Notes under the pieces: generated by a model
Told to the model about the DNA's origin: nothing
The model's input: only the letters and a program-made list of their open reading frames with translations
Databases searched by the model: none
In this document: piece by piece, positions 4,489-64,000 of the stretch
Numbering within the stretch: position 1 is the stretch's first letter
Layout of the letters: every line of letters starts with the position of its first letter
Assembly: GCF_963514075.1 (NCBI RefSeq)
Contig: NC_083776.1
Coordinates: forward strand, 18,758,415-18,822,414
Origin: Conger conger
Lineage: Eukaryota
Length of the DNA stretch: 64,000 bases
Direction of reading: 5' to 3'
Position numbers and translations under genes: made by a program

Positions 4489-6206
4489 TCACACGTAAGA
4501 CTCTTCAGCGAAAAGCATTTGGTCGAAGTCGTCGAACCTGGGGTCGCTGCACCTCCTGCTCTGCCACTCCCGCTTGGTCTGGACAATGGCCGAGGCCACC
4601 TCCTGTGTGCTTCTGCAGCAGGAATCGGGGTCTGTGTGGGTGTGCGAGAAGTAGTCCCTCACGGCCTGGCAGAACCTGGGCTCCGGGCCCAGCCCCTGGC
4701 TGCTGCGGAGAGGCTCCAGCGGCCCAGAGTCCTGGGGGCTCCTGCCCAGCGAGGCCTTGCCGTCCTGGCCCAGTACCTGCTTGTGCAGGCTCTCTAGGTC
4801 AGGGGTGGAGATCCGGCGCAAAACGCAGCGGCCTACCGAGGGTTCCGACGCCCGCCGGCCCATGCTGGAGGTCCTGTTTGAACCTTCCTTGGCTGGGATG
4901 AGGGAGTGGGAATTTTGCCTCTGGAGAGTCAAGCTGGAGGAGGCTTGTCCAAAGAACACTGACTGGGGCAGACCGCCTCTTACCGACGACGCGTTCTTCT
5001 GAGTGACGTCACTTCCTGCGCTCCTTGCCGACGCCTGGTCATGCAGCTGCCTCAGTTCCTTCACGGTCAGCACTTTATCTGTGGCCTTGCAGACGGGGGA
5101 CCTGGGGTCCTGCATTTGCAGCATGGCTTGTTGGTAGGAGGGAGGGCTGTTGGCCCTCTTCCTAGAAGGTTCTCCAAGTCCATGGGCTTTCCTGTCATTG
5201 CTCAGTGACAACCCATTGGAGGGGAGGGACTTGTTGTTCTGCCCATTGCCCAGCTCCCAAGGTTCTTCCTCATCCCAGCCAGTCATGTCCTGCTGCCGTA
5301 GCGACAGTCGCCGGTCCCTCTTCAGCCACGTGTTGGGGTGCAGGCCATGGGCGATCTTGTGTTGGCCCCACTCGCAGGGCTCCCTGGGGGCTGAACTAGG
5401 GGTGATGGCGTTGCCATGGGAGAGCGGAGAGGTGGTGACAGGGGAACGAGGGGAAGTTGGGGCAGGGGTTTTGGGGGAGGAGGTCCCCCGAGCACCCGAG
5501 GGCTCGACGGGGGCAGGGGCCGTGCAGTCCATGGAGCACTGGGAGAAGGCGCTGTCCAGCGAGCTCATGGATGAGCCTGAGGGGGACGTGGCGGGGGAGG
5601 ACAGGCTGGAGCAGCTGACGTCCAGACGCAGCGGCGAGGGGAGCTTGTGTTTCCGCCGCAGGACGTCCCGCAAAGTCCGCTTGTCCGGCTCGACCTCCCT
5701 GCCCCCGTCCCCTGGACCCGTTTGCCCGGCCCGGGTAAGTGAGTCACCCAGGCATTGCACAAAAACATCACCCTCGCCTTGTCCGCCGCACATCACACCG
5801 TCGTAGCTGGTTTTGCGGACCGCCATGTTGTGCTGCCCGAGGTTTGGCACCAGGCTGGAGGCGGGGTGCCGGATGGCGGGTTCAGAACATCGCCGGAGCC
5901 AGCGGCCCCCCTGGCAAGCCCGGGCGTCCTGCTCGGAAGGAGGGTCGGGCTGGTGCCCGGACTGGGTGAACTTCCTGGGGTTGACCGCCTGTCGGCGGAC
6001 GGGTGTATGGGGCACGGGGTCAGGGTCATGGTCGGGGTCGGGCTGGTCCAGGTCGCAGTCGCTCAGGGTGATGACGGAGTCACGGCTCCTGTTCTCCTGC
6101 TTGTCCTTGCAGCCCCGCAAGTCCTGGAAGGGCGACTCGGTGTCCTCGTTCAACTCGTTCTCCAGACTGTCATAGGACGAGTCGTTCAGCTGGACGGTGG
6201 ACACAT
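4489..6206 (-). CDS. arhgap20: arhgap20 terminal coding exon (exon n). It encodes about 572 aa of Ser/Pro-rich disordered C-terminal tail. The stop TGA is at 4489-4491.
   Basis: The exon is an uninterrupted 1.7-kb ORF. The acceptor ctacctgcag| lies at 6207-6209. The tail begins DVSTVQLNDSSYDSLENELNED...SVITLSDCDLDQP, which matches my recall of the ARHGAP20 (RA-RhoGAP) family tail. The protein ends ...RRCSDPRFDDFDQMLFAEESYV*. Phase is continuous with the upstream exon (G+AT gives Asp). Confidence 0.85.
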
Positions 6207-6224
6207 CTGCAGGTAGAGACACAA

Positions 6225-7905: not shown

Positions 7906-8320
7906 CTGAGGACAGAGCGGGGGTCATCAGAGCGTTTACAACAACAACAACCCAGTAGCTCCAGCAGGATTCCATTTTTTGGAACACAGAGAATATACAG
8001 TCCAAGCTTCTGTCTCATCTTAATTAAGATAAAAATATGCAGTAAAATAAAACACTGTTGGACATTCAGTCACACAATCATATAAATCTGCAAGGGGACC
8101 TGGAGCTGTCATTTCTCAACTGTCATTTTGTCTGAAGGCCAAAAAGAGACCACAGTTTGGCTGCTGTCATAGGCGTTTGAAAAGCTCTTTTTATTTTTAC
8201 CCTGCCAGCCAGACACTCATTGCGCTGTTTATCCTAAAAAAAGAATCTAAATTATATCTGTGGGTTGTGTGGGAAACAAATGGAAGAAGAGAAGAGCTCT
8301 TGTGTGATCTGAGGTCTCGG

Positions 8321-8445
8321 AGAGTCACCTACACTTCACCATACAGGCTGTGATTGGCTTTGAGAGTCCCATACACTTCACCACACAGGCTGTGATTGGC
8401 CCTTAGAGTCCCCTACACTTCACCACACAGGCTGTGATTGGTTCT
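8321..8445. repeat. Tandem repeat of 3 x 42 bp. Each unit carries GATTGG, an inverted CCAAT box.
   Basis: The unit is agagtc.c.tacacttcaccacacaggctgtgattgg...., repeated three times at more than 90% identity. It lies in the arhgap20 intron between exons l and m. Confidence 0.7.
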
Positions 8446-17583: not shown

Positions 17584-18153
17584 GTGCCCAGGTCTATTAT
17601 AGTACAGTTGGGCCCAAGTGTTATACAGTGCAGGTGTTCACAGGTCCTATACAGTACAGGTGTTCACAGGTGTTATACAGTGCAGGTGTTCACAGGTCCT
17701 ATACAGTGCTGGTGTACACAGGTGTTCTACAGTGCAGGTGTTCACAGGTGTTGTGCAGTGCAGGTGTTTCCAGGTGTTATACAGTGCAGATGTTTCCAGG
17801 TCCTATACAGTGCAGGTGTTCACAGGTGTTGTGCAGTGCAGGTGTTCACAGGTGTTATACAGTGCAGGTGTTTCCAGGTGTTATACAGTGCAGATGTTTC
17901 CAGGTCCTATACAGTGCAGGTGTTCACAGGTGCTGTGCTGTGCAGTGCAGGTGTTCACAGGTGTTATACTGTGCAGGTGTTCACAGGTGTTATACAGTGC
18001 AGGTGTTTCCAGGTGTTATACAGTGCAGGTGTTCACAGATGTTGTGCAGTGCAGGTGTTTCCAGGTGTTATACAGTGCAGGTGTTCACAGGTGTTATACA
18101 GTGCAGGTGTTCACAGGTGTTGTGCAGTGCAGGTGTTTGCACGGCCTACCTGA
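17584..18153. repeat. Minisatellite of about 22 copies of a 26-bp unit (caggtgttcacaggtgttatacagtg) with a 13-bp sub-period.
   Basis: Visible periodicity with variants such as caggtgtttccaggtcctatacagtg. It explains the six-frame ORFs at 17584..18153, 17618..18571 and 17628..18347. It abuts the arhgap20 exon c donor at 18150. Confidence 0.9.
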
Positions 18154-22584: not shown

Positions 22585-22695
22585 GGCCACAGAAGATAAC
22601 CAGAGTACCTGGCGGAAATCCCAGCGGACACGGGGAGAACATGCTAACTCCACACAGAAAGGCCCAGGCCGGGATTTCCATCCTTCCCTCTGCAC
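22585..22695. mobile_element. Family C repeat fragment (the ...ggggagaacatgctaactccacacagaaaggcccaggccgggatt... segment).
   Basis: It explains the six-frame ORFs at 22518..22916 (+) and 22487..22681 (-) as SINE-derived rather than genic. Confidence 0.6.
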
Positions 22696-34789: not shown

Positions 34790-34835
34790 TACAGTATGTG
34801 TGTGTGTGTGTGTGTGATAGAGAGCATGTGTGTAC

Positions 34836-34872
<37 letters not shown>

Positions 34873-34890
34873 TAGAGAGCATGTGTGTAC

Positions 34891-34922
<32 letters not shown>

Positions 34923-34941
34923 ATAGAGAGCATGTGTGTAC

Positions 34942-34975
<34 letters not shown>

Positions 34976-35086
34976 TGTGAGATAGAGAGCATGTATGTAC
35001 ACTTTGTGTGTGTGTGAGATAGAGAGCATGTGTGTACTATATGTGTGTGTGTGTGTGTGTGTGCGCGATAGAGAGCATGTGTGTAC

Positions 35087-35123
<37 letters not shown>

Positions 35124-35141
35124 TAGAGAGCATGTGTGTAC

Positions 35142-35178
<37 letters not shown>

Positions 35179-35546
35179 TAGAGAGCATGTGTGTACTGTA
35201 TGTGTGTGTGTGTGTGTGTGAGATAGAGAGCATGTATGTACTGTATGTGTGTGTGTGTGATAGAGAGCATGTGTGTACTGTATGTGTGTGTGTGTGTGTG
35301 TGTGTGAGATAGAGAGCATGTATGTACACTTTGTGTGTGTGTGAGATAGAGAGCATGTGTGTACTGTATGTGTGTGTGTGTGTGTGTGTGCGATAGAGAG
35401 CATGTGTGTACTGTATGTGTGTGTGTGTGTGTGTGTGTGTGATAGAGAGCATGTGTGTACTGTATGTGTGTGTGGGTGTGTGTGTGAGATAGAGAGCATG
35501 TATGTACACTTTGTGTGTGTGTGTGAGATAGAGAGCATGTGTGTAC

Positions 35547-35581
<35 letters not shown>

Positions 35582-35648
35582 TAGAGAGCATGTGTGTACT
35601 GTATGTGTGTGTGTGTGTGTGTGTGTGTGATAGAGAGCATGTGTGTAC

Positions 35649-35683
<35 letters not shown>

Positions 35684-35922
35684 TAGAGAGCATGTGTGTA
35701 CTGTATGTGTGTGTGTGTGTGTGTGTGAGATAGAGAGCATGTATGTACTGTATGTGTGTGTGTGTGATAGAGAGCATGTGTGTACTGTATGTGTGTGTGT
35801 GTGTGTGTGTGTGTGAGATAGAGAGCATGTATGTACACTTTGTGTGTGTGTGAGATAGAGAGCATGTGTGTACTGTATGTGTGTGTGTGTGTGTGTGTGT
35901 GCGATAGAGAGCATGTGTGTAC

Positions 35923-35954
<32 letters not shown>

Positions 35955-35973
35955 ATAGAGAGCATGTGTGTAC

Positions 35974-36016
<43 letters not shown>

Positions 36017-36360
36017 TAGAGAGCATGTGTGTACTGTATGTGTGTGTGTGTGTGTGTGTGTGTGATAGAGAGCATGTGTGTACTGTATGTGTGTGTGTGT
36101 GTGTGTGTGAGATAGAGAGCATGTATGTACACTTTGTGTGTGTGTGAGATAGAGAGCATGTGTGTACTATGTGTGTGTGTGTGTGCGCGCGCGATAGAGA
36201 GCATGTGTGTACTATATGTGTGTGTGTGTGTGTGCGCGATAGAGAGCATGTGTGTACTATATGTGTGTGTGTGCGCGCGCGATAGAGAGCATGTGTGTAC
36301 TATATGTGTGTGTGTGTGTGTGTGTGTGATAGAGAGCATGTGTGCACTGTATGTGTGTGT
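34790..36360. repeat. About 1.6-kb compound minisatellite of roughly 30 units (45-62 bp each). Each unit is gatagagagcatgtgtgtactgtat followed by (GT)8-18.
   Basis: Regular recurrence of gatagagagcatgtgtgtactgtatgtgtgtgtgtgtgtg, with variants gagatagagagcatgtatgtacactttgtg and gcgatagagagc. It explains the 575-aa ORF at 34720..36447 and the other His/Thr/Cys/Val ORFs here. Confidence 0.95.
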
Positions 36361-36642
36361 ATCTCTAAGGCTTATGAGCTGTAATAATATCCCCATGCTT
36401 TGAAGGTGGGTGTAATTACAGGGTCTTCCGCTGAGAGACAGGTTCATTGTCCATGTGCTCCTGTGACCCAGGCCCCCTCAGAATACCCCTTAGTGAGCGA
36501 GAAACGATGTCCACATTCACAGGGAGCGCGACTCCAGAGATCGGACAGATAAAACATTCCCTCGGAAAACAGCTTTCCCCTCCACACTCCCGGCATCCGC
36601 CAAGACGAGCAAGCAGCTGCTCAACACCTCAGACCCAGTATA

Positions 36643-37035
36643 TCCATGACTACTGTTACCTCACAGTACATCCATGACTACTGTTACCTCACAGTACATC
36701 CATGACTACTGTTACCTCACAGTACATCCATGACTACTGTTACCTCACAGTACATCCATGACTACTGTTACCTCAAAGTACATCCATGACTACTGTTACC
36801 TCACAGTACATCCATGACTACTGTTACCTCACAGTACATCCATGACTACTGTTACCTCACATTACATCCATGACTACTGTTACCTCACAGTACATCCATG
36901 ACTACTGTTACCTCACAGTACATCCATGACTACTGTTACCTCACATTACATCCATGACTACTGTTACCTCACAGTACATCCATGACTACTGTTACCTCAC
37001 ATTACATCCATGACTACTGTTACCTCACATTACAT
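36643..37035. repeat. Minisatellite of about 14 copies of a 28-bp unit (acagtacatccatgactactgttacctc).
   Basis: Near-perfect tandem copies with occasional acagta to acatta or aaagta variants. Confidence 0.95.
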
Positions 37036-37479
37036 CCTATTTAGCATACTAACAAAGAAGTGCATACCAAGGTCCTCAGAAGAAACTGTAGAACAGGTTG
37101 GATAAGGTAGAATTCATGTAGAATCAGTTGTACAGCGGGGAACATTATGTCTAGTACACATAGTTCTCTTTCTGTGTCTATTCCTGGTTAATTAGGTATT
37201 GCATCTGCTGCAGATCCATAGTTATCTGCACACACATACCACAGGCCAGTGTACATGAATTAAGTTATTAACACACTGACACTGACAATCTTTTCCTTTC
37301 TCACATTTTATATATCTCTTATTTAGTCTTTTTCCACAGCTCTTTGCCATCACTATATAGTGTACATCATGCAGGCTGCCACCGTACAACTCTGACTAGA
37401 AGCTTCTGCAAAGGCTAATTAACACACTTATGAAGAGAACTCAATAGATGATCATTTCAGAGACATGCAAGGCTTTTTG

Positions 37480-47475: not shown

Positions 47476-48654
47476 CCATAATGCAATGTAATGCTTCAGC
47501 GCCATCAGAGGTGGTTCAAGTTTGGCAGACCTTCCCCCCTCCTCATTGACTATACCCCAGCTTAACCCTGGAGCCTACATGAGAACCCAAAGATCCTCCC
47601 AGGGCTTTGAGCGGGTCCATTCAGTCCCACTGGTGCAACGCTGCTCCTGGGAATTTCCCCCTGCTCCCGAATCGTGGAATGTTGCGGAGAAACAAACTCA
47701 GAGGCAATGAGGTCATGAGGAGACTTGACTTCTGTCTCCCGGGCGGAGGGAAAGCTGCGTCCGCACACACTGAATAAGGTTACTCTGTTTCACACAGAGC
47801 TGCTGAGGCCAAGCATTTCACACAAATTCCACGAGTAGATGTCAGCGTTTTTTACTTCCCGCTGTTTGCGAGAGACTGACGCTTCGCTCCCATAAATCTT
47901 CTGAAGTAAAACAGTGAAACGGAGCCTGACTCGGCATTAAAAGCAAATTTAAAAAATCATTTTACTTCACAGCTCAGGATAATGATACAGCAAAAAAAAT
48001 ATGAACTATAAATTGCAGTTTGCTGTTAGTTGAACTTCCCCTGAGTGTGTGGCTCTTAGGACCGAACCAAAGGTACAGTTCATGTCAACACCTACACTGA
48101 CTTCACAGATCATTTTTAATTACTTTTACCAACTAATCAGACCAGATCAATACTGACACTACATCAAAGCCTTTATAATACCTTGTTAAATTAAATAATC
48201 GGGTGGTGCTAATGTTTTTTTTGTGTTTTCTGACATACCTTAATTGAAAAAAATCCCCTAATTATTATTAATGACAGTGTGTGACATTATAATAAATGTC
48301 AGCAGTTCTTCCAAGAGAAATGGGCGACGGCTTTTTTGAAGTCGGCATTAAATTCAGAGCTCTGGCAGATGCAGGAGTTTTAGTTGTCTAATTAGGCGGT
48401 TAGCTTGCCAAACATGGTAATGAACACACAAGCTCTTCTGTTGGATGCATGCGGCTCGTACAGATCCTGTCAGGGCAAGGGGACATCTCATGTTTTACTG
48501 CGATTTATTTGTTTTACATTCCTCAAAGCTGGGTGGCATGCAGCCATTTTCTTTTTTTTGCACTTGTCTGTCAGTTTTCGCTGGAGCGTTTGTGAAGAGA
48601 TGATAACTTCCAGCCCTGCCTGTGTTAATGCGGAGGCCCCAAACATGTCCATGA

Positions 48655-48920
48655 CCATCATCTCCAGCACCCAAACGACCAGACCAACCAGATCCCATAC
48701 CCAACCACCATCTCCAGCACCTCAACAACCAGACCCCATACCCAACCACCATCTCCAGCACCCAAGCAACCAGCAGAACAACCAGACCCCTTACCCAAAC
48801 ACCATCTCCAGCACCCCAACAACCAGACCCCATACCCAACCACCATCTCCAGCACCCCAACAACCAGACCCCATACCCAACCACCATCTCCAGCACCCAA
48901 ACAACGAGAACCATTATTAA
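48655..48920. repeat. Tandem repeat of about 6 copies of a roughly 41-bp unit (ccaccatctccagcacccaaacaaccagaccccatacccaa).
   Basis: Periodic ...caaccaccatctccagcacc(c/t)caacaaccagaccccatacc.... The 171-aa ORF at 48405..48920 (PTS/Q-rich) runs through it. Confidence 0.85.
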
Positions 48921-60263: not shown

Positions 60264-60294
<31 letters not shown>

Positions 60295-60319
60295 GATTAT
60301 TATTATTATTATTATTATA

Positions 60320-60358
<39 letters not shown>
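60258..60358. repeat. (ATT)n microsatellite of about 100 bp.
   Basis: tattattattattattattattattatgattattatt... Confidence 0.9.
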
Positions 60359-60359
<1 letters not shown>

Positions 60360-60565: not shown

Positions 60566-60608
60566 CAGCAGAACCAGACACTCGACCAGTTTTTTAAGGC
60601 AAATCATA

Positions 60609-62202
60609 CAGTGGGAGCAATAATTATTTGATCCCTTGCTGATTTTGTAGGTTTGCCACCTTACAAATAATGGAACTGTGTAGAATTTTAATCATTTTAA
60701 CATTGAGAGACAGAATATCACAAAATAATCCACAATAACAACATCATATAAATTTTATAAATTTATTATCGTATTTTTGCATGAAATAAGTATTTGATCC
60801 CCTACCAATCAGCAATAATTCTGGCTCCCACAGACCAGTTAGTTTTCCATTAAGCACTCCTACTCTCCACTCATTACCCAAAACACCTGTGTCAACTCGT
60901 TACATTGTTATGTAGTTGTATAAAAGACACCTGTCCACACAATCAATCAGATTCCAACGTTCCACCATGGCCAAGACAAAGGAGCTGTCTAAGGACATCA
61001 GGGACAAAATTGTAGACCTGCACAAGGCTGGGATGGGCTACAAGAAAATAAGCAAGCAGCTTGGTGAGAAGTTAACAACTGTTGGAGCAATTATTAGAAA
61101 ATGGAAGAAACACAAAGTCACCGCCAATCTCCCTTGGTCTGGGGCTCCACGCAAGATCTCGCCTCGTGGGATATCAATGATCATGAGAAAGGTCAGGGAT
61201 CAGCCCAGTACTACACAGGAAGAGCTTGTTAATGACCTGAAGGCAGTTGGGACCACAGTCATGAAGAGAACCATCAGTAACACATTACACCATGAAGGAT
61301 TAAAATCCTGCTGCACGCGCAAGGTTCCTCTGCTGAAGAAGGCACATGTACAGGCCTGTCTGAAGTTTGCCAAAGAACACCTGGATGATCCAGAAGAGGC
61401 TTGGGAGAAGGTGATGTGGTCAGATGAGACCAAAATAGAGATATTTGGCATCAACTCAACTCGCCGTGTTTGGAGGAAGAGAAATGCTGAGTACAACCCC
61501 AAGAACACCATTGCCACTGTGAAGCATGGAGGTGGAAACCTTATGCTTTGGGGGTGTTTCTCAGCTAAGAGGACAGGACGACTTCACCGTATCGAGGGGA
61601 GGATGACTGGGGCCATGTACCAGGAACTTTTGGGCAACAACCTCGTTCCCTCAGTGAGAGCACTGAAAATGCGTCGTGGATGGGTCTTCCAACATGACAA
61701 TGACCCAAAACATACGGCCAAGGCAACAAAGGAGTGGCTCAAAAAGAAGCATATTAAGGTCCTGGAGTGGCCTAGCCAGTCTCCAGACCTAAATCCCATC
61801 GAAAATCTGTGGAGGGAGCTGAAGCTTCGAGTTGCCAAGCGACAGCCTCAGAACCTTAAGGATTTGGAGAGGATCTGCAAAGAGGAGTGGACCAAAATCC
61901 CTCCCAAGATCTGTGCAAACCTGGTGAAAAACTACAACAAACGTCTGACCTCTGTGCTTGCCAACAAAGGTTTCTCCACCAAGTATTAAGTCCTATTGTT
62001 CTATGGATCAAATACTTATTTCATGTGAAAATATGATATAAAATTGATCAAATTTATATCATGTTATTGTGGATTATTTTGTGATATTCTGTCTCTCAAT
62101 GTTAAAATGTACCTATGATTAAAATTCTACACAGTTCCATTCTTTGTAAGTGGGCAAACCTACAAAATCAGCAAGGGATCAAATAATTATTGCTCCCACT
62201 TC
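60609..62202 (+). mobile_element. Tc1/mariner (Tc1-like, Sleeping-Beauty-type) DNA transposon. It is full length at about 1.6 kb, has roughly 200-bp near-identical terminal inverted repeats, and has an intact transposase ORF.
   Basis: The left end is TA|CAGTGGGAGCAATAATTATTTGATCCCTTGCTGATTTTGTAGGTTTGCCAC.... The right end is ...GTGGGCAAACCTACAAAATCAGCAAGGGATCAAATAATTATTGCTCCCACttc. About 200 bp at each end are mutually reverse-complementary with few mismatches. The last 3 nt of the right terminus (TTC instead of TGTA) deviate from consensus. Confidence 0.85.
60967..61989 (+). CDS. Tc1-like transposase of 340 aa ([32 protein letters not shown]...). It carries a DD(34)E catalytic triad and paired-like HTH and GRPR-like motifs.
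   Basis: The ORF is uninterrupted. The DDE residues are DETKIE (first D), QHDNDPKH (second D) and [11 protein letters not shown] (E). The length equals the 340-aa SB/Tc1 transposases, and an NLS-like KWKKHK is present. The six-frame track extends the ORF to an upstream ATG at 60916, but MAKTKE at 60967 matches the family start. Confidence 0.85.
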
Positions 62203-64000
62203 ATTATTTCCTAAATGTCTAAATAATGGCATGGATTCAAATGCTTCACAATAAAGTAGGCATACAAACACTAACACTAACATCTACAGCTGAAAATGTT
62301 TGATTTGGGGTGTAATGACCCTTTAAACGCTATTCAAGCACCTTCACCCCAGTCTGGGTCAGATAATCCTGCCAGATTGTGCCCTTTTCAACATCATGGA
62401 GGTTGGAGGTAGTTGTGCACTCAAAGACAGGGCTGAGATCTCAGGAGATACACACATGGGAAGACGCAGGGCCCTGGCAGATATTTAGGGAAGCGTGTAA
62501 GATGTGACGTGATGGTCGCTCATGTGGACGGGATTGGGGGTTGGGGGAGGGGGCCTGGGGAGGTCAGCCCGTGGCAGGGGGGTGGGATGGAGGGTGGAAT
62601 AGCAGACAGGGTGAGATGGTCTACCATTTCCATAATCAGTCAGTGTAATCAGAGTAAAACAATGCTCTTTTTTGTCAGAAGGTCAAAAGAGAAAATGTTA
62701 TTACAGTGAACTACAGCTAATTTGAAAGTGCTGTCTAATAATGCCTTTGAGGACTTCCACAGGGCCCGGATGGGGAGAGATCCACCGGCACCCACCTAGA
62801 GGGCGAAAGTCAATCTCAATAGGTTTCAAGTGCTCTCAAAGGTGAGGAGGACTGTGGTACATATTCTCATTTTATTCACTGACTCTAATAACATGCTTCT
62901 GACTTTTTTACTTTTAAATTTCACCTGGGTCTAAGGTGACTTTATATCAGCTAATTCGTCAATTTGCATTTGCTCCCTTAAAATGGGGGGACCGTGTACA
63001 GAAAGGGATGTAATTCCTACACAGATCACCCACAATATGGATATAAATATCCTGTTACGACCTCGTAAGTTTTGTGTTTACATCAGTTTGTTTCTGCTAC
63101 ACCGCACGCGCGGACCGATTCGTAACGACCCTTAAATTAAAGCTGACAGTCTGCACTTTAAACGCACGTTCGCTGTTTTACTTCAAATCCAATTTGCTGG
63201 AGTACAGAGCCAAAACAACAAAAAATGTGCCACCGTCCCAATGCTTTTGCACTTGACTGTATAATGTTCAGGAGTGTCGAGGAGACACCGGACAGACACC
63301 CGATAAATTGCCAAAGTGCTGTTCTTCACTGTGTTATAGCCTCAGGCCGTACATCTGGAAATCACTTCAATGTCAAAAGGTCTCTGGGTTGTTTCTGGAC
63401 TTGGCGATTTTGAACGATGCATCTCATTTTGCAAGCCAAGGGTTTCATACAGGAACCTGCTGGCTTTACTCAGGCTCAAACACGTCAAACTACATTTATA
63501 GCGAAACAGCCAACTGTGACAAAATAAGAACACTCTCTCACTGCCTGGAAGCGGTTTCAGTCCTCAGTCTGCACATATTTTTGGTCATTCACTGTCACAA
63601 GCACCAACTGTCATTACAGTCAAACTCATCATCGCCACACTAAACATACATTTGAAGGATTGCTATTTTTCACATCTTATTTTGCATTACTGTTTTTGAA
63701 TTCATTTTCTATCGATTAATATAACATTAACATGCTTATAATAAATTCTTATAATGATGACATGAAAGGGGCTCAGACAAGGAGAATAATTTTGGTTGGA
63801 GAATAACAAGGAGAATAATTTCTGACTGGCATAGTTTGGTATCACCCACACATGGCTAATTAAACCCGTCTTAATAAGAACACTACTTAATAAGAACGGT
63901 CCCTTCCTTCACCTCCACAGTTACAAAGCTTAACCCAACAACAACAACCCCACACTCTGATTGGACCGAAAGCTAGCCCACACAAAACCCCCCACACTCT

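Follow-up and report, generated by a model that had tools for sequence, protein, structure and literature searches.

A full-length but probably ageing Tc1-like transposon with an uninterrupted transposase reading frame in the genome of Conger conger

Fish are already known to harbour Tc1 elements of the architecture described here that are native, intact and even active in experiments, ZB of the zebrafish being the example. Zebrafish ZB has 19 intact copies, with mutual identities above 99% and arms that are 100% identical (PMC7913693), and zebrafish families in which intact copies are recorded also include Mariner-15_DR, the named element closest to the one reported here. In a survey where 'intact' meant the presence of repeats, duplications and an open reading frame (ORF) of at least 300 amino acids, intact copies of ZB, ZB-like, SB and SB-like elements were recorded in 105, 183, 26 and 36 genomes respectively, with more than 100 intact copies in some species (PMC9777934). 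The first-pass annotation of our locus had treated an intact vertebrate Tc1 ORF as a rarity; in the light of these counts that view is outdated. The demands placed on the ends of such an element are described for SB, which needs at least one TA and at least one CAG (preprint by Z. Cui, Hackett and colleagues, bioRxiv 10.1101/659086). When the TA is deleted and CAG is changed to CAA at the same end of SB, excision footprints are no longer detectable, and a change of the first or third CAG base markedly reduces both excision and transposition (bioRxiv 10.1101/659086). With one intact end, some aberrant excision of SB is still possible.

Here we describe one full-length Tc1-like DNA transposon at positions 60609-62201 of a 64-kb stretch of Conger conger DNA (the window, by which we mean the whole stretch analysed). 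The element is a Tc1/mariner, DD34E, IR/DR-type cut-and-paste transposon of the SB/ZB type. Its family, which carries no name, is akin to zebrafish Mariner-15_DR and has ZB as a more distant relative. Place and class agree with the first-pass annotation, which had set the right end at 62202; the family consensus described below moves that end to 62201 and identifies position 62202 as the first base, now mutated, of a former TA duplication. The identity, anatomy and mutation pattern of the element are matters of direct observation, and together they lead us to regard it as probably a full-length but ageing copy that has not been recently active.

The surroundings of the element differ in part from what had been proposed. 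A (TAT)n tract at 60265-60359 is followed by a SINE-like fragment, in agreement with the tract reported earlier as (ATT)n. The element had also been placed directly beside this fragment, and here we find about 128 nt of other sequence between the two. Comparison of the flanks with the window and with related loci gave one weak SINE match only and no empty site, while self-BLAST of the 64-kb window returned no second copy or fragment of the element or of its protein. Elsewhere in the window, an ARHGAP20-like gene is represented by one large exon, a 577-aa ORF on the minus strand (4489-6222), with its best named match in the cutthroat eel Synaphobranchus kaupii (58%), matches of about 45% in other teleosts and 83% identity to one ENA protein; by these matches the DNA is probably that of an eel-like (elopomorph) teleost.

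Thousands of Tc1 transposases from fish and frogs came up in a protein search; the closest of them, 88-94% identical, are ORFs of a single ENA assembly, ERZ26222911. A look-up among approximately 15 billion sequences found the exact protein of the Conger ORF to be absent, and metagenome scans with a subfamily-specific 25-mer and a family-wide 31-mer of the repeat gave no match. Eight ERZ26222911 loci, 92-95% identical to the Conger element at the nucleotide level, were fetched and aligned, and a 1608-bp majority consensus was built from these eight copies with the Conger copy left out; its source is another genome or subfamily than that of the Conger copy. Two further loci, L010 and L011, were retrieved once the consensus had been built, and were set against it without entering it. 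The consensus contains an intact 340-aa ORF, its arms are 100% identical across the outer 146 nt, and it ends in CAGTG...CACTG, with a TA adjoining the preserved ends in L001, L002, L006, L008 and L011. Identity to the consensus is 99.75% for L010, and T99M is the only change that separates the protein of its ORF, P0131, from that of the consensus; for L011, which has TA on both sides, identity is 98%. The ERZ26222911 genome has much better candidates for autonomy in L010/P0131 and L011 than the Conger copy, and a search for an active element in this family should begin with these near-consensus sequences rather than with the Conger copy.

The repeats and junctions of the Conger element comprise the following features (a slash marks the boundary between element and flank).

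60607..60608, no strand: left TA target-site duplication; a TA adjoins the same termini in the five sister copies named above.
60609..60801, plus strand: left terminal inverted repeat (TIR), IR/DR type, about 193 nt, starting CAGTGGGAGC; recognised from inverted-repeat pairs I1-I4 and from alignments to the right arm and to Mariner-15_DR.
60619..60635, plus strand: outer direct-repeat core of the left arm, AATAATTATTTGATCCC, a putative transposase binding site by analogy; repeat family D2.
60658..60659, plus strand: CA>AC, in the left arm only, found neither in the right arm nor in either consensus arm.
60692..60693, plus strand: 8 nt (CATAGGTA) deleted from the left arm alone; the element's own right arm retains them, as does the left arm of every sister copy.
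60785..60801, plus strand: inner direct-repeat core of the left arm, AATAAGTATTTGATCCC; D2, I4.
62005..62201, minus strand: right TIR, about 197 nt, from the inverted-repeat search and arm alignments.
62005-62020 (inner) and 62176-62191 (outer), minus strand: direct-repeat cores of the right arm, from the repeat search.
62201..62203, no strand: damaged right junction, TCA against G/TA in the family; sister copies L001, L002, L006, L008 and L011 read ...GCTCCCACTG/TA and the Conger copy ...GCTCCCACTTCA.

With arms of 193 and 197 nt that each hold two direct repeats, the element has the IR/DR layout, the binding roles of the repeats being putative. The 17-nt core, AATAA(T/G)TATTTGATCCC, occurs twice per arm, at 60619 and 60785 and, inverted, at 62005 and 62176, and the outer core at 60619..60635 matches the inner one at 16 of 17 positions. 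A binding-site role for the outer core is suggested by analogy with the IR/DR arrangement of SB (PMC4820933). The arms had been called almost identical; we find 88.9% identity over 199 nt by blastn, and 178 of 201 positions (88.6%) with 13 gap columns by global alignment, the gaps including the 8-nt deletion on the left and a 3-nt deletion on the right. Over the central 48 nt of the arms, complementarity is perfect (pair I3). A G>T change at 60668 is confined to the left arm of the Conger copy, and the right arm alone carries the 3-nt deletion and several inner changes.

The two ends of the element have fared differently. At the left, the sequence reads TA/CAGTGGGAGCAATAATTATTTGATCCC and the terminus is CAGTG. 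At the right, the terminus is CACTT in place of CACTG, and the junction reads ...GCTCCCACT-T-C-A (CACTT/CA), against ...GCTCCCACT-G/T-A (CACTG/TA) in five sister copies; CAGTG, CACTG and TA are the family consensus. The deviation of the outermost three or so nucleotides of the right terminus, already reported in the first-pass annotation, is borne out by this comparison. The terminal base and the flanking TA have been lost here, either by two adjacent substitutions or by a single 3-bp deletion of GTA, and of the TA duplication the left copy is present while the right one is CA, or nothing if GTA was deleted. As SB loses excision with a comparable lesion of a single end, the Conger copy is most probably immobile in cis, although the end requirements established for SB may differ in part for this family. 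As a side possibility, the scar of an abortive single-end cleavage might account for a lesion that has its centre at the very cleavage site of the right end.

The interior of the element is occupied by the transposase.

60967..61989, plus strand: transposase ORF, uninterrupted, 340 aa plus stop (ATG at 60967, stop at 61987-61989).
60967..61122, plus strand: PAI-like helix-turn-helix, HTH_SB, aa 1-52 (Pfam E 8e-26; 2m8e, SB PAI subdomain).
61177..61386, plus strand: RED-like helix-turn-helix, HTH_Tnp_Tc3_2, aa 71-140 (Pfam E 1e-21).
61411..61866, plus strand: DDE catalytic domain, DDE_3, aa 149-300 (Pfam E 5e-16; 5cr4 alignment).
61423..61425, plus strand: catalytic D153 (GAT), aligned to the SB100X residue.
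61696..61698, plus strand: catalytic D244 (GAC), aligned to the SB100X residue.
61801..61803, plus strand: catalytic E279 (GAA), 34 residues past D244, aligned to the SB100X residue.

The earlier description of this ORF has proved accurate as regards frame and triad: it is open from its ATG to its stop, all catalytic residues (D153/D244/E279, DD34E) are present, and a check for an inactivating substitution in the DDE triad found none. The GRPR-like motif described earlier corresponds to an SGAPRK stretch, as in the RSGAPRK of ZB. A bipartite, paired-like helix-turn-helix DNA-binding domain is present, both halves of which score well over the Pfam cut-offs, and, for the putative NLS proposed earlier, basic clusters are seen at K100-R101 and R118-K119/K124-K125. 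By analogy with SB and ZB, such a transposase would bind the outer and inner direct repeats of the approximately 200-bp arms through its PAI and RED helix-turn-helix motifs, pair the ends and cut with its DDE site at the TA/CAGTG junctions, after which the element would reinsert at a TA that is then duplicated. Within this open frame, four codons stand out when the protein is set against 75 full-length homologues.

61135..61137, plus strand: codon 57, TGG, R57W, a CpG transition; 66 of 75 homologues have R, as do the family consensus, Mariner-15_DR and ZB.
61357..61359, plus strand: codon 131, TGT, R131C, a CpG transition; R in 67 of 75 homologues, the family consensus, Mariner-15_DR, ZB and SB100X.
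61513..61515, plus strand: codon 183, GCC, P183A; 74 of 75 homologues have P, as do the family consensus, Mariner-15_DR, ZB and SB100X.
61570..61572, plus strand: codon 202, AGG, G202R; G in 73 of 75 homologues and all four reference transposases.

At position 57, SB presumably also has R, in its SB10 version. The glycine-rich strip of SB (aa 183-198) begins with P183 (PMC4820933). The other replacements include some that are probably harmless: at the positions of G236R and R109H the active ZB transposase has K and H. The Conger transposase protein is probably impaired.

Relative to the consensus, the Conger copy carries 53 substitutions (3.33%) and 4 indels, and so ranks with the most divergent members of the set of nine. 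Twelve of the 31 consensus CpGs (39%) are gone, 11 of them as TpG or CpA, a loss that is the joint highest of the nine. Within the ORF there are 25 nucleotide differences, 10 of which are CpG transitions, and these produce 18 amino-acid differences with a pN/pS of 0.73 that does not differ from 1 (binomial p = 0.32). It would be wrong, however, to read all 53 differences as decay that followed insertion, a possibility that we rejected in view of the mirrored arm changes and of shared or outgroup-assigned amino-acid states. At three places the two arms depart from the consensus in mirrored fashion (60683/62127, 60726/62076 and 60733/62069-70), a pattern that independent decay cannot yield, so that the Conger copy descends from a source slightly unlike the ERZ26222911 consensus, that is, from a sister lineage. 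The figure of 3.3% therefore overestimates the copy's own decay. Among the amino-acid states, I72 and V320 arose on the ERZ26222911-consensus lineage by outgroup polarisation. A2, N224 and Q295 are frequent among the 75 full-length homologues; despite this frequency, A2 and N224 polarise as Conger-derived and Q295 is ambiguous.

In view of this sister-lineage origin, the 25 ORF differences were polarised with zebrafish Mariner-15_DR as outgroup, four of them proving ambiguous. The Conger lineage received 15 changes, 14 nonsynonymous and 1 synonymous, of which 7 are CpG transitions and which include R57W, R131C, P183A and G202R. The ERZ26222911-consensus lineage received 6, of which 2 are nonsynonymous and 4 synonymous. 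We therefore see no purifying selection on the Conger lineage, while the other lineage looks constrained. Divergence of the ORF on the Conger lineage amounts to 15-19 changes per 1023 nt, or 1.5-1.9%. If the zebrafish rate adopted in the ZB paper is applied (4.13e-9 per site per year; PMC7913693), a divergence of 1.5-3.3% translates into some 2-8 million years, according to the formula chosen; this is an order of magnitude only, given that the rate is that of the zebrafish. This range of divergence argues against a young insertion age.

How can a frame remain open in a copy that decays in this way? In simulations that placed 25 substitutions of the observed classes on the consensus ORF and ignored indels, the frame was still open in 26% of 20,000 runs. 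Two frameshifting indels, of 8 nt and 1 nt, fell outside the ORF, and with these taken into account the joint chance of an open ORF drops to a few per cent per copy, which is unremarkable for a multi-copy family. Other decayed copies also have 340-aa ORFs, namely P0006 (88% identical to the Conger protein) and P0123. Since its insertion, the Conger copy has probably been mutating without constraint, losing its right terminal base and TA, 8 nt of the left repeat and 39% of its CpGs and gaining about 14 amino-acid replacements, with a reading frame that has stayed open by chance. Counting against decay are the intact triad and three intact domains, the absence of any stop or frameshift, and the fact that none of the four indels lies in the ORF. 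A young, near-identical subfamily may also exist in the host genome, the comparisons made here being with the ERZ26222911 copies and the 64-kb window.

Three other readings of the locus deserve consideration alongside that of an ageing copy. The first is that of an intact autonomous element that moved recently and can still excise and reinsert alone, in keeping with the recent transposition and possible autonomy put forward in the first-pass annotation. Its open 340-aa ORF, DD34E triad, paired-like DNA-binding domain and GRPR-like motif all speak in its favour, as do two repeats with their direct repeats and complementary middle 48 nt, and several of these are signs that the ZB paper looked for when judging activity (a full-length ORF with DNA-binding domain, GRPR-like motif and DDE domain; PMC7913693). 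The same paper also looked for very high arm identity, and here the Conger copy, at 88.6-88.9% with indels, falls well short of the 97-100% of zebrafish families judged potentially active. Two further signs in that paper are a young insertion age and several copies with more than 99% identity within one genome. Furthermore, arms that differ by about 11%, a right cleavage site and TA that have been destroyed and a ratio of 14 nonsynonymous changes to 1 synonymous speak against recent transposition, as does the loss of 39% of the CpGs; no identical protein was found among the approximately 15 billion sequences, the best relative is 94% identical, and the 64-kb window holds no second copy. An element that is still autonomous is on this evidence highly improbable. 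A second proposal is that the right end is dead and the transposase still mobilises sister or non-autonomous copies in trans; the Conger ORF would then encode a Tc1 transposase that is both native to an eel-like fish and active. In its favour, triad and domains are undamaged, L159I, I221L and the G236R/R109H pair (K/H in ZB) are conservative or seen in active relatives, and the 18 amino-acid differences are counted against a consensus whose own ORF is intact. Against this stand R57W, R131C, P183A and G202R, which are radical and lie at nearly invariant positions, together with a ratio of changes that bespeaks no selection for function, and we regard activity in trans as unlikely.

Selection by the host could in principle also have kept the ORF while the ends decayed, in which case the transposase would have been domesticated. 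An ORF that is open despite damaged ends, and four of four indels that lie outside it, speak for domestication. It sits poorly, however, with a pN/pS of 0.73 and 14 nonsynonymous changes to 1, which give no sign of purifying selection, and with the replacement of conserved residues; the same substitution load leaves the ORF open by chance in 26% of simulations, the repeats are still largely present, no conserved orthologous locus was found, and the exact protein is absent from the sequence collection. Without purifying selection on the Conger lineage we rejected domestication, which is more improbable still than autonomy. An ageing copy remains our preferred reading. More generally, an open ORF with an intact DDE triad does not amount to evidence of activity: at this locus, the family consensus, the decay of CpGs, the balance of nonsynonymous against synonymous changes and the precise form of the termini all point the other way.

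Of the elements already described, Mariner-15_DR, a zebrafish Repbase consensus that is DD34E/Tc1 despite its name, is the closest relative. Its sequence was taken with other zebrafish Repbase consensus sequences from Supplemental Dataset 1 of PMC7913693. The two align end to end (1-1592 against 1-1594) and share repeats of about 200 bp, CAGTG termini (degraded on the right in the Conger copy) and TATTTGATCCC cores; Mariner-15_DR is 1595 bp long, and its 340-aa transposase aligns without gaps. They differ in sequence, with 74.9% nucleotide identity overall, 78% in the CDS and 74% at the amino-acid level, as well as in the state of their ends, the 201-bp arms of Mariner-15_DR being 97% identical with TA on both sides, and in the GRPR-like motif, which is RSGAPQK in Mariner-15_DR and SGAPRK in the Conger copy. 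The 80-80-80 rule, which is said to go back to Wicker et al. in 2007, asks members of one family to be at least 80% identical in nucleotides across no less than 80% of their length, and the 74.9% found here lies below that mark. The Conger family is on these comparisons a homologous sister family of Mariner-15_DR; a further sister family in another teleost adds one entry to repeat libraries and matters little beyond that.

SB (SB10/SB100X), the reconstructed salmonid Tc1, is likewise 340 aa long with D153/D244/E279 at the same positions, and shares the HTH_SB PAI subdomain, the IR/DR arrangement and, at the level of the family, CAGTG-type ends and the TA target. The SB100X catalytic domain (5cr4, residues 116-340) aligns to the Conger protein without gaps (E 9e-85), and overall amino-acid identity to SB is 52%, with SB10 as the sequence compared. 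Its repeats, in contrast, are unrelated in sequence, and it has GRRR where the Conger family has GAPRK.

ZB (Tc1-8B_DR), the native active zebrafish Tc1, shares a length of about 1.6 kb, 201-bp IR/DR arms, a DD34E transposase of 340/341 aa and the RSGAPRK motif (PMC7913693). Its outer repeat, AATAAGTATTTGA, is related to that of the Conger family, while the repeats as a whole cannot be aligned to those of the Conger element by blastn. The Conger element and ZB are 60% identical in amino acids, 63% in the CDS, 56% in the DNA-binding domain and 62-65% in the catalytic domain, levels that match the 61% (CDS), 54% (DNA-binding domain) and 68% (catalytic domain) reported between ZB and 'ZB-like' elements (PMC9777934, Jia et al. 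2022); placement in that clade goes by these identity levels and is provisional. Sequence motifs of the Conger family did not occur in the supplements of PMC9777934. The contrast with ZB lies above all in preservation, since copies of ZB are more than 99% alike, with 100% identical arms, TA duplications and an age below 1 My (PMC7913693), whereas the Conger copy has arms of 89% identity, a broken end and a divergence of 1.5-3.3%.

The two inverted-repeat arms of the Tc1-like transposon (window 60609-62201) share some of their differences from the related-genome consensus, a majority sequence built from eight ENA ERZ26222911 loci with the window copy excluded. Arm alignment revealed three mirror-image differences present on both arms (60683/62127, 60726/62076 and 60733/62069-70), and the arms can therefore be said to co-vary. 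The occurrence of these changes on both arms rules out independent decay as their source; they instead mark the window transposon as a member of a sister subfamily. According to the repeat finder, the arms are also perfectly complementary along their central 48 nt.

The sole lesion at the right end lies at window 62200-62203, exactly on the transposase cleavage site. The junction here reads TCA (62201-62203), against G|TA in sister copies, and the lesion could be accounted for by one 3-bp deletion that removed the G together with the TA. Its coincidence with the cleavage site may be due to chance, or may be the scar of an abortive cleavage at a single end.

Relatives of the transposon were recovered from two other assemblies:

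L010:1631-3215 (ENA ERZ26222911, ctg927962), L010 copy, 99.75% identity to the family consensus
L009:2360-3540 (NCBI GCA_977065575.1, contig CDRUOC010005399.1), L009 copy, a more distant family relative

The L010 copy encodes a consensus-like 340-aa ORF (P0131). On the right, the copy breaks off 23 nt before the expected end, where another Tc1-like coding sequence takes over, and its left flank is GA, not TA. Nesting, rearrangement or a mistake in a 2x-coverage assembly may explain this structure. The L009 copy shares 79% identity with the family consensus, carries an internal deletion, and is flanked by ORFs with matches to the interferon regulatory factor (IRF) domain.

To the left of the window transposon lie two further elements:

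60265-60359, (TAT)n microsatellite, ~32 units
60362-~60480, tRNA-like SINE fragment, directly after the microsatellite

Around 128 nt of non-repeated sequence separates the SINE fragment from the transposon, and the fragment's only further trace within the window is a 57-nt match (82%) at 22624-22677.

Elsewhere, the window contains several minisatellites, which are responsible for most of its long spurious ORFs, and part of one gene:

4489-6222, minus strand, ARHGAP20-like (Rho GTPase-activating protein 20) gene, large exon as a 577-aa ORF
8320-8441, minisatellite, 42-nt unit x3
17618-18137, minisatellite, 26-nt unit x20
34797-36146, minisatellite, 49-nt unit x28, TG-rich, 1.35 kb long
36636-37037, minisatellite, 28-nt unit x14, 97% matches
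48654-48909, minisatellite, 94/41-nt unit, proline-codon-rich

Protein matches to the 577-aa ARHGAP20-like ORF point to a probable eel-like (elopomorph) teleost as host: the top named match came from Synaphobranchus kaupii (58%), compared with ~45% for other teleosts and 83% for an ENA protein.
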